Sequence record: MF158046
Origin: Shigella phage Sf23
Reading direction: 5' to 3' (one strand)
Length of the DNA: 64,000 nucleotides
The notes under the pieces: generated by a model
Databases searched by the model: none
The model's input: only the letters and a program-made list of their open reading frames with translations
What the model was told of the DNA's origin: nothing
Translations under genes and position numbers: made by a program
Shown here: positions 50,288 through 52,095 of the stretch, piece after piece
How positions within the stretch are numbered: the first letter of the stretch is position 1
Layout of the letters: each line of letters begins with the position of its first letter

Positions 50288-50306
<19 letters not shown>

Positions 50307-50776
50307 TCAGTGATAAAGTTATTTAAATTTTGAGTATATTTCTTTTCATCAAAAATCTTTTGTTGTCTGCGTAGCCGCCATGGCATTTCAATGAACGTGT
50401 ACCATATCCCAGATAATATTGCTGCAGTAAAAATATTAACAAGTATGGTTAAAAGAATCCAATCTCCTATTCTGTCCATTGGATTTTTTATAAAAAAGTA
50501 AAATACGAATGATGTCACAGGAAGACTAATAATATACCACAGAATCATAATTTTATCTGTGAACCAATCAGCGTTCGTTAACTTAGCGCGACCATTATGA
50601 ATACACACGAATTTATCATCTGTTATAATAGATGGCTTAGCTGCTTGATATCCCATTCTAAACTCCCTAATCAACAAATTTTTCATATCTTCGGAACAAC
50701 CATTCCAGTCAACTCTATCAACTGAAATGCCATCATCCCCATCATCTAAATCATACCAGCGAGTTTTTAAAATCAT
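50288..50776 (-). CDS. membrane protein, CRK[IL]K-tail paralog (162 aa)
   Basis: TM helices; C-terminus [10 protein letters not shown]. Confidence 0.5.
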
Positions 50777-51147
50777 TTAATTTTCCTACAATCACTCACA
50801 AACTCTTCCATTGATTCTTTTTCAATATAAGACATGTAGCTATTATATTCCTTTAATTGTATTTTGTAATCCTTTTTTCTTTGCCAATTTATTTTAAAAT
50901 TATCATAATGAAAATATAACATTGTACCAAAGAATGAAAATAATGAAATCGCTATAGTATAATGAAGTTCACTCCAAACTTCTATTATATCTATTATACC
51001 GCTGACGTTACTACGGATGTTTAAAATAAGACAGTCAATTAACAATCCAAAAAGACTACCCGCAAGAGCTGCAGCCAACGCTACAGCAAAAATTAAAAAT
51101 GACTCAGGAAGAGAATATTTGACTTTATTTAGTTTTGGCTTTTGCAT
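50773..51147 (-). CDS. membrane protein, CRK[IL]K-tail paralog (124 aa)
   Basis: TM helices; C-terminus EEFVSDCRKIK. Confidence 0.5.
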   Translation of the reverse strand: MQKPKLNKVKYSLPESFLIFAVALAAALAGSLFGLLIDCLILNIRSNVSGIIDIIEVWSELHYTIAISLFSFFGTMLYFHYDNFKINWQRKKDYKIQLKEYNSYMSYIEKESMEEFVSDCRKIK

Positions 51148-51542
51148 CGTGATTCCTTAACAAATTTCATAATTTCATCAAATTCATGCGCAGCAAGTTT
51201 AAGCTGATGTTCCTTTTTAATCTTTTTACACTGAGCTTTCCAATCACGTACACGTTTACGATAGTGTCTTCCTTGATACCAATATCCTATCCAATTTATA
51301 GGTACTAATAAAAGCGGAACTACCAACGGAAGAATTAGTGTTGCTCCAAATATTGCACCAGATTCAATATCAGTCATAACGTCTATAACCATTCCAGCAA
51401 TCACCAGAATCACAAATGATACAACTACCACAGGACCTATTAACACATCAGTAGAAATTATCTGACGCTTTAATTCATACTTCAACGGTTTACTTGGAAG
51501 GTATAGTGATGGTTTTGACATATTCTCTACATTCCTTAACAA
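51129..51542 (-). CDS. membrane protein, related paralog (137 aa)
   Basis: TM helices; C-terminal region WKAQCKKIKKEH... Confidence 0.5.
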   Translation of the reverse strand: MLRNVENMSKPSLYLPSKPLKYELKRQIISTDVLIGPVVVVSFVILVIAGMVIDVMTDIESGAIFGATLILPLVVPLLLVPINWIGYWYQGRHYRKRVRDWKAQCKKIKKEHQLKLAAHEFDEIMKFVKESRCKSQN

Positions 51543-52095
51543 ATTTTTCTAATAATAAATCGCTTTCAAAATTGGGATTTTCTACGAATTTATCAAAAAG
51601 ATCATCGACAATAGTTAAGATATTCTTTTTACTAAGAATACGTTTATTTTCATGCTTCGTTTCAGAATCAACTATAAGAGTAAAGAAATATTTCTTGCCC
51701 TGAAATTTTACAGTAGTATCAATATAGAATAAATTTGACTTTTGTAAATTACGTTTAAACCATGCATCACTTAAACTATAAACGCCAAGATAATCATAAT
51801 CGTCGTTTAAATAACAGACCGTCCATTCAGGAGAAACAAAATCAGTAAATTCAACGTCAAAATCGCATGTTAATAAATGAATTGATTCAATACTGTTAAT
51901 AAGTATTCCAGGACGTATTAAAGACTTTTTACCTTTATAAAATCCAGAAAGACTTTCATCAGTTTCATATGAAGAACCCCAATAATAATTACGTCCTTCT
52001 GCCATACGTTTAAGAGCATTTAATAATTGGTCTGGAACATCAACCTGTCTTTGGAACTCTTCAAACATTGAATTGAAATCACTTTGCATTTTCAT
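51490..52095 (-). CDS. hypothetical protein (201 aa)
   Basis: ORF; C-terminus EKFVKECREYVK resembles tail motif of downstream membrane paralogs. Confidence 0.5.
   Translation of the reverse strand: MKMQSDFNSMFEEFQRQVDVPDQLLNALKRMAEGRNYYWGSSYETDESLSGFYKGKKSLIRPGILINSIESIHLLTCDFDVEFTDFVSPEWTVCYLNDDYDYLGVYSLSDAWFKRNLQKSNLFYIDTTVKFQGKKYFFTLIVDSETKHENKRILSKKNILTIVDDLFDKFVENPNFESDLLLEKFVKECREYVKTITIPSK

Follow-up and report, generated by a model that had tools for sequence, protein, structure and literature searches.

This report concerns a block of four small early genes, e.5, e.4, e.3, and e.2, at positions 50,288 to 52,095 of a window from Shigella phage Sf23 (sequence record MF158046). The window is the whole stretch of DNA that was analyzed, 64,000 nucleotides (nt), and coordinates refer to it unless another record is named. 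The genes lie between e.6 and nudE. Their proteins carry a similar short peptide at or near the C terminus, and its codons overlap the start signals of the next gene and the repeats that bound gene losses.

Gene content between e.6 and nudE

Positions 49800-52800 were 100% identical in DNA to Escherichia phage vB_EcoM-Sa45lw, 99.5% identical to RB51 (both Tequatrovirus), and about 91.5% identical to T4. More than 600 phage records matched this region. The RB51 annotation names the four minus-strand open reading frames (ORFs) e.5, e.4, e.3, and e.2, with e.6 upstream and nudE, e (lysozyme), and denV downstream. RB51, T4, and the old T4 record L13089 all have four ORFs between e.6 and nudE/e, on the same strand and in the same order as here. 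In L13089 e.5, e.4, e.3, and e.2 are called msp4, msp5, msp6, and msp7. The comparison with the T4 e.2-e.6 region that the initial annotation had suggested returned direct orthologs with the same order, orientation, and overlaps. By sequence and position, e.2 to e.5 are the orthologs of T4 e.2 to e.5, and the early region that they occupy, bounded by the conserved e.6 and nudE, is variable ("hyperplastic"). The block and the gene that follows it contain these features.

51490..52095, minus strand: e.5 (msp4), soluble protein of 201 amino acids (aa) with a C-terminal helix that contains LEKFVKECR (ORF and translation, RB51 and T4 annotation, PHROG 2607).
51129..51521, minus strand: e.4 (msp5), 130 aa from the ATG, two transmembrane (TM) segments, tail with the degenerate motif IMKFVKESRCK (PHROG 2604).
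50773..51147, minus strand: e.3 (msp6), 124 aa, two TM segments, tail ending MEEFVSDCRKIK (PHROG 2330).
50288..50776, minus strand: e.2 (msp7), 162 aa, conserved acidic N-terminal domain (residues 1-75), two TM segments (PHROG 2203).
49851..50291, minus strand: nudE (e.1, msp8), Nudix hydrolase, the last gene in the overlapping series (Pfam NUDIX, 6.9e-13).

The gene overlaps were 32 nt (e.5/e.4), 19 nt (e.4/e.3), 4 nt (e.3/e.2), and 4 nt (e.2/nudE), the last two in the form ATGA. Because each stop overlaps or sits within the start of the next gene, translational coupling is proposed. The layout suggests that e.5-e.4-e.3-e.2-nudE are made as one coupled series. A scan of the junctions from e.5 to nudE found no strong promoter or terminator.

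Each of the four proteins matched its own PHROG family over its full length. These were 2203 for e.2 (4.7e-79), 2330 for e.3 (7.5e-63), 2604 for e.4 (2.2e-69), and 2607 for e.5 (1.1e-107). PHROG places the e.2 family in the category "moron, auxiliary metabolic gene and host takeover." Pfam has precomputed identifiers for e.2 (PF26896), e.4 (PF26873), and e.5 (PF26876), and these models are outside the Pfam set searched here. The Pfam, NCBIfam, and PADLOC profiles that were searched gave nothing meaningful for e.2 to e.6 and only NUDIX for nudE. No match to e.2-e.6 was found among PDB sequences. Some records name e.3 as a "sulfurtransferase" (several NCBI records) or a "DNA primase" (phage ZCEC14). 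Neither name was backed by any profile search.

Kyte-Doolittle hydropathy gave two hydrophobic segments each in e.2 (78-96 and 106-124), e.3 (about 17-41 and about 62-80), and e.4 (about 27-49 and about 57-77), and none in e.5. The second segment of e.3 was the weakest. A basic stretch follows the second segment in e.2 (WRLRRQQK), e.3 (WQRKKDYK), and e.4 (GRHYRKRVR). This topology prediction agrees with the earlier description of TM helices followed by a basic juxtamembrane region. Basic residues cluster before TM1 and after TM2, and the loops between the segments are 7-20 residues long and acidic or neutral. The e.2, e.3, and e.4 proteins are predicted to be small inner-membrane hairpins in an N-in/C-in orientation, with both ends in the cytoplasm.

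A C-terminal peptide shared by otherwise unrelated proteins

The initial annotation had described a C-terminal CRK(I/L)K motif. The peptide is better described as L/M/I-x-x-F-[IV]-x-[ED]-C-R, and the residues beyond the Arg are variable. The e.2 tail ends in TECRKLK and the e.3 tail in SDCRKIK (...MEEFVSDCRKIK), both as first read. The KECREYVK of e.5 was also confirmed (...LEKFVKECREYVKTITIPSK), and its motif lies 11 residues short of the end of the protein. The QCKKIKK tail assigned to e.4 was an error. AQCKKIKK is internal, about 25 residues before the end, and forms a juxtamembrane basic stretch. The true e.4 tail is KFVKESRCKSQN (...IMKFVKESRCKSQN). It is a degenerate copy that aligns as F-V-K-E-S-R, with a Cys two residues later.

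The whole Sa45lw genome was scanned in six frames for [FILVMYW][IVL]x[DE]CR. It contained four matches. Three belonged to e.2, e.3, and e.5 and lay no more than 11 residues from the stop, and the fourth was in an apparently off-frame ORF. The scan found the motif at no other ORF end. The number of C-terminal matches expected from composition and 300 shuffles was 0.08, compared with 3 observed, and the maximum in any shuffle was 1. Chance does not account for the motif, which within the genome belongs to this cluster alone.

Two further tails in the window resemble it loosely. Thymidine kinase (43008-43598, minus strand) ends ...EIYVSLCRKHWNELTKKLG, and a 69-aa ORF (5285-5494, minus strand) ends ...KKVCEVDCRG. 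Both fail the full motif, and the resemblance is probably due to chance.

The Leu, Phe, Ile/Val, and Cys of the motif occupy positions i, i+3, i+4, and i+7, which is one helical face. The hydrophobic moments of the tails were moderate (0.32-0.49). The AF2 (AlphaFold2) model of e.5 holds the motif in a helix at residues 179-195, with a pLDDT of 60.8, which is low confidence. The tail is predicted to be helical and moderately amphipathic.

The initial annotation had staked the motif on its conservation in orthologs, and it was present there in at least nine genera. The carriers come from Tequatro-, Mosig-, Dhaka-, Gapriver-, Kanagawa-, Jiaoda-, and Winklervirus, Enterobacter phage MY742 (unclassified), and an Aeromonas Biquartavirus, and at least nine T4-like genera keep the motif between e.6 and nudE. 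Across genera, e.6 is followed first by a soluble motif protein and next by one or more motif proteins with two TM segments. Orthologs of e.2 were found in five further genera. The e.2 tail reads VERFITECRNLR in Mosigvirus, LN[DS]FIEECRK in Dhakavirus and Gaprivervirus, F[DK][SK]FIKGCRNGRN in Kanagawavirus and Enterobacter phage MY742, and SDFIKGCRK in Winklervirus. For e.3 there were 45 close homologs, and its tail reads IENFIKECRK in Mosigvirus, LETFIKECKS in Dhakavirus, and IEYFIKECR in a Winklervirus relative. The soluble protein directly downstream of e.6 ends in LEQFIMECREY, LNRFI[KA]ECREY, DEFIKYCRER, LDFVDQCRAN, or DEFVKMCRTK, and in IELFIDYCRR in Aeromonas Biquartavirus. Extra small proteins with the motif were RB69ORF133c (LENFIKECRGK), PEi20 ORF-137 (LDAFIQMCRRN), and two further ORFs in Klebsiella phage KP179. 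Mosigvirus, Dhakavirus, and Jiaodavirus have e.4 orthologs. It is in the e.4 lineage that the motif is degenerate, with tails FVKE[SI]RCK, FIKEVRN, FVKEVRRK, and FIKNVRRK. An IMG/VR scan with e.5 returned only six loci. A profile of the tails searched against a collection of 5.8 billion proteins returned only fragments of the same families.

The codons of the motif vary. Arg is encoded by AGG, AGA, CGA, CGT, or CGC; Cys by TGT or TGC; Phe by TTT or TTC; and Leu by four codons. The residues are constant while the codons turn over synonymously, so selection acts on the amino acids.

Cys-Arg is the most conserved pair in e.2, e.3, e.5, and 133c. It could be a chemical site, for intersubunit metal binding, redox sensing, or sulfur transfer, rather than part of the docking surface that we favor below. 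In Tequatro- and Mosigvirus the Cys of e.4 is displaced by two residues, another tail Cys directly follows TM2 in both e.4 and 133c, and some e.3 homologs carry the "sulfurtransferase" label in NCBI records. That label has no traceable basis, however, and no rhodanese, TusA, DsrE, or other family match was found in Pfam or NCBIfam at E values up to 0.1-1. The e.4 proteins of Dhakavirus, Jiaodavirus, and the Enterobacter phage have Val at the Cys position, and e.2, e.3, and e.5 have a single Cys per tail. We consider a chemical site very improbable.

The initial annotation had also read the cluster as a paralogous expansion. This holds for e.3 and e.4, which have a profile match beyond the motif. 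It does not hold for e.2, which shares the tail only, or for e.5, which belongs to a separate soluble family. The hhalign comparison of e.3 with e.4 gave a collinear full-length match (probability 96%, P = 7e-9, 114 columns) from alignments of 5-7 sequences. The match appeared after one e.3 variant and the Jiaodavirus e.4 ortholog were added to the alignments. Without the motif the score was 28-34, compared with 12-16 for the reversed-sequence control. The N-termini agree (MQKPKL in e.3 and MSKPSL in e.4). Because of the full-length profile match and the similar N-termini and sizes, e.3 and e.4 are probable products of a tandem duplication.

Pairwise BLAST among the proteins aligned the tail only. 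Earlier hhalign runs with shallow alignments gave matches limited to the last 10-20 residues, and these were gone once the motif was removed. RB69ORF133c and the C-terminal half of e.2 match e.3 and e.4 through the tail only; nothing is left of these matches without the motif, and the e.2 scores then do not exceed those of reversed controls. A HMMER search of 1.84 billion representatives with the e.3 profile returned only e.3 orthologs and no e.2 or e.4. A Winklervirus protein gave only weak bridging hits.

Between e.5 and the membrane proteins only 7-10 tail residues align. The e.5-position proteins of other genera are joined by a chain of weak BLAST hits. Foldseek on viral models linked e.5 to uncharacterized proteins of phages that infect Klebsiella, Erwinia, and Citrobacter. 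Because of these weak BLAST links and the Foldseek links, a single fast-evolving e.5 family is more likely; e.5 and its positional counterparts are probably one such soluble family, unrelated to the membrane proteins. For the Dhakavirus protein at the e.5 position, hhalign had hinted at a captured tail on an unrelated protein body. This was withdrawn, because weak links to e.5 run through Jiaodavirus, Winklervirus, and Enterobacter phage proteins. Sequence and profile comparison show the same short peptide, conserved across orthologs, in otherwise unrelated proteins.

These comparisons also bear on the function first proposed for the cluster, which was that of paralogous inner-membrane proteins for superinfection exclusion. 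Such proteins might also block incoming phage DNA in another way, as T4 Imm does. The e.2, e.3, and e.4 genes are in the early region, and their products are small, dispensable, and predicted to be in the inner membrane. The probable paralogy of e.3 and e.4 and the PHROG category of e.2 also fit. However, the proteins have no similarity to Imm or Sp of the same phage. The hhalign probability to Imm and Sp of the window was at most 12%, within the control range. With predicted loops of 7-20 residues there is little periplasmic exposure, and the conserved element is on the cytoplasmic side and is common to a soluble protein. The e.2 gene is deleted in T2 and frameshifted in T4, and there were no PADLOC or family matches. 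The exclusion function found no support, and we regard it as distinctly unlikely. A "host takeover" or "accessory" role for e.2-e.5 is compatible with the sequences.

Motif DNA, gene loss, and the flanking region

The motif codons and the repeats that contain them are located as follows.

51526..51552, minus strand: e.5 motif codons (LEKFVKECR), which include AAGGAA upstream of the e.4 ATG.
51147..51173, minus strand: e.4 motif codons (IMKFVKESR), with AAGGAA 6 nt upstream of the e.3 ATG; that ATG is within the R-C codons.
50785..50811, minus strand: e.3 motif codons (MEEFVSDCR), with AGGAAA (R-K codons) 7 nt upstream of the e.2 ATG and an ATGA stop/start overlap.
50300..50326, minus strand: e.2 motif codons (LNNFITECR), with AGGAAA 7 nt upstream of the nudE ATG and an ATGA overlap.
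51531..51546, minus strand: within the e.5 tail, the upstream of two identical 16-nt direct repeats, AAATTTGTTAAGGAAT, on either side of e.4 (repeat search; local alignment, p about 0.001).
51152..51167, minus strand: within the e.4 tail, the downstream one of these two 16-nt repeats (repeat search; local alignment).
50742..50802, minus strand: upstream copy of an imperfect direct repeat of about 60 nt that flanks e.2, from the e.3 motif codons through ATGA into the first e.2 codons.
50258..50317, minus strand: downstream copy of this imperfect repeat, spanning e.2 motif codons, ATGA, and the first nudE codons, in a different frame past the ATG.

The Shine-Dalgarno (SD) sequence of the next gene is always inside the motif codons. 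The K-E codons AAG-GAA supply it for e.4 and e.3, and the R-K codons AGG-AAA for e.2 and nudE. The gapped local alignment of the e.2-flanking repeat scored 31, compared with a shuffle maximum of 30 in 500 shuffles and 31 in 1000 (p about 0.001). This similarity is at the DNA level, because the repeat runs past the ATG in a different reading frame.

T2-type and ZN18-type phages do not have e.2. In these phages the two repeat copies have merged into one chimeric e.3 tail, with GATTG joined to CAGGAAATTAAAATGAAAACA, and the protein ends in CRKLK like e.2. The T2 junction matches e.2-containing phages as two pieces with a 22-nt overlap. There are about 40 T2-type records, as extrapolated from an evenly spaced sample. 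The aligned junction shows that e.2 was lost in T2-type phages exactly between the flanking repeats. Since the motif DNA is repeated at successive gene ends, it offers short direct repeats for precise in-frame loss of single genes.

Other phages have lost or broken members of the block. In the T4 lab strain e.2 (msp7) is frameshifted to 102 aa, without the membrane hairpin and tail, and the downstream fragment still encodes the tail (locus L002, 1768-2076; locus L019, 2927-3235). The e.2 gene is broken in AV109, and e.4 is absent from VR5. Escherichia phage vB_EcoM-UFV11 (locus L018, 1501-1821) encodes an in-frame e.4N::e.2C fusion of 106 aa that keeps the C-terminal motif. It joins the first 31 or so residues of e.4 to the TM segments and tail of e.2; the remainder of e.4, e.3 in full, and the e.2 N-terminal domain are deleted. 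The fusion shows that breakpoints elsewhere also occur. These genomes show that genes of the block are dispensable, and e.2-e.5 appear to be accessory functions that turn over between phages. RB32ORF132c, one of two 157-aa ORFs described below, is another repeat-bounded cassette; the RB51 annotation notes a flanking 34-bp imperfect direct repeat.

The shared tail may be a by-product of this junction architecture, in which ribosome-binding and coupling signals coincide with a repeated cassette joint. It would have no protein function, and new genes would gain the tail by recombining there. The presence of the SD within the motif codons in every case is consistent with this, as are the perfect 16-nt repeat around e.4, the imperfect repeat of about 60 nt around e.2, and the T2-type loss of e.2 exactly between repeats. 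T4-type phages also shuffle cassettes at repeated regulatory sequences, the PeSLs (PMC2839356; PMC4122927). Several observations argue the other way. The amino acids are kept while the codons change, including Arg between AGR and CGN, and the SD does not explain the Cys and Phe. The SD is in different motif codons depending on the gene (K-E or R-K), and the motif is separated from the start by anything between about 5 and more than 40 nt. At the DNA level the repeats around e.4 resemble those around e.2 no more than expected by chance. The motif is at no other ORF end in the six-frame scan of the genome. On balance a by-product without protein function is unlikely, with a small but real chance of being correct. 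The narrower explanation by the ribosome-binding site alone was ruled out by the non-SD Cys and Phe, the synonymous codon variation, and the lack of any other ORF end with the motif.

Upstream of the block are e.6 and two signals.

52137..52730, minus strand: e.6 (msp3), 197 aa, strongly conserved, predicted long helical hairpin, in every case directly upstream of the motif genes.
52116..52131, minus strand: in the e.6/e.5 gap, a GGGGC-UUCG-GCCCC hairpin (stem_loop in T4 record L13089).
52773..52801, minus strand: early-type promoter-like site (TTTACA-17-TATAAT with TG) upstream of e.6 (consensus scan 11/12; -35/-10 at the equivalent place in L13089).

The e.6 protein was 88% identical between Tequatro- and Mosigvirus, far above the conservation of the motif proteins, and it was present in 1105 phage records. 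It did not match the PspA_IM30 profile at E values up to 0.1 and had no PDB sequence match. A reading of e.6 as PspA was rejected. It was not discriminated from generic coiled coils, and Smc, BAR-domain, and other coiled coils scored as well or better. The hairpin at 52116-52131 appears more like an RNA stability or processing element than a terminator, because no T-run follows on the coding strand. The e.5 start is closely preceded by a GGAG.

A second tandem family of three to five small soluble proteins is present between e.3 and e.2 in Mosig-, Dhaka-, and Kanagawavirus (loci L004, 2367-3161; L013, 3030-4286; L014, 2352-3597; L006, 7660-8960). Winklervirus and the Enterobacter phage have single copies, and the family is absent from the window. 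All members share the C-terminal sequence G-x-W-[VF]-S-S-S-x-x-C, in which Cys is the last residue. Two 157-aa ORFs in the window, 48360-48833 and 53855-54328 (both minus strand), start with MK[TS]Y.[EQ]F[IL].EA, which is the T4 internal-protein capsid-targeting leader. One is annotated as Ip4, and the other is RB32ORF132c. The Sa45lw record (MK977694) is offset from the window by 273 nt at about 4.6 kb and about 10.2 kb and has no offset at about 42 kb. At least one indel therefore lies between about 10 kb and 42 kb.

Proposed role of the tail and comparison with known systems

We propose that the shared tail is a cytoplasmic amphipathic helix for docking or assembly, carried by dispensable accessory proteins. 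Through it the otherwise different e.2-e.5 proteins would bind a single shared partner, or one another, on the inner side of the membrane. Candidate partners are the invariant neighbor e.6 and host factors. Three of the proteins would be anchored in the inner membrane with cytoplasmic tails and one would be soluble, all from one coupled early operon. Besides encoding the peptide, the same DNA holds the SD sequence of the next gene (AAGGAA or AGGAAA) and the joint for gene loss. We favor the docking reading and judge its chances to be about even.

Several points weigh against docking. At the Cys position the e.4 proteins of Tequatro- and Mosigvirus have Ser or Ile, with a Cys two residues later, and the Dhaka-, Jiaoda-, and Enterobacter-phage versions have Val and no nearby tail Cys. 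The Cys is not indispensable, because the e.4 lineage tolerates its loss or displacement. The e.5 model that places the motif in a helix is of low confidence, the TM segments are predictions from hydropathy, and the e.3 and e.4 alignments are shallow. Every motif copy overlaps a ribosome-binding site and a recombination joint, so its conservation could be partly at the nucleotide level. Literature searches by gene name returned nothing relevant on these genes, and a prior description of the motif is possible.

A more elaborate version places all of these proteins in one phage membrane module, composed of e.6, the e.5-type protein, the e.4/e.3-type hairpins, and e.2. The tails would dock onto the predicted helical hairpin of e.6, a shape similar to those of PspA, ESCRT-III, and BAR-domain proteins. 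The module would shape or protect the host inner membrane during infection, and the repeats would swap subunits. The role of e.6 as a hub for the tails is speculation, and the module as a whole is a long shot.

T4 is the best-studied large phage, and about half of its genes have no known role. A peptide common to four adjacent uncharacterized early proteins in at least nine genera is a concrete starting point for the function of the whole gene block. The genes have already been catalogued. No description of the shared tail or of its triple use was found in the literature or annotations. About 30 nt appear to carry three constraints, namely a protein motif, the ribosome-binding site of the next gene, and a recombination joint. 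If the tail is only a by-product of the junctions, it warns against reading protein function into every conserved C-terminal "motif" of a tightly packed phage genome.

The genes do not differ in kind from T4 e.2-e.5; e.2 is intact here, whereas it is frameshifted in the T4 lab strain. None of the annotations examined for e.2-e.5 assigns a function or mentions the shared tail. T4 Imm and Sp are also small, early, dispensable envelope proteins of the same phage, and Imm also has hydrophobic segments. They differ in having no sequence or profile similarity to e.2-e.4 and no C-terminal motif. Sp resides in the periplasm, whereas for e.2-e.4 the conserved part is predicted to lie in the cytoplasm.

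PspA with its small membrane partners PspB and PspC is another system for comparison. It differs in that e.2-e.4 show no similarity to PspB or PspC and the PspA_IM30 model does not match e.6. The T4 proteins gp43, gp33, and gp55 are unrelated proteins with similar C-terminal clamp-binding tails that dock to one hub. The peptide here differs from those tails in being amphipathic with Cys-Arg, and three of its carriers are membrane proteins.

The PeSLs of T4-type phages are repeats that contain an intergenic early promoter and a stem-loop, and they mediate modular shuffling (PMC2839356; PMC4122927). Like PeSLs, the repeats in this block are short, lie at gene boundaries, end in an SD sequence and start codon, and flank single accessory genes in a hyperplastic region. 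They also coincide with insertion/deletion differences between related phages, here the presence or absence of e.2. Unlike PeSLs, they are coding and contain the last codons of the upstream gene, with no intergenic gap, promoter, or stem-loop. The repeat here is also translated into a conserved peptide. PeSL-mediated shuffling is the nearest described mechanism. The block would be a compact example of the gain and loss of single genes without breaking an operon, and it would extend the PeSL idea into coding sequence.

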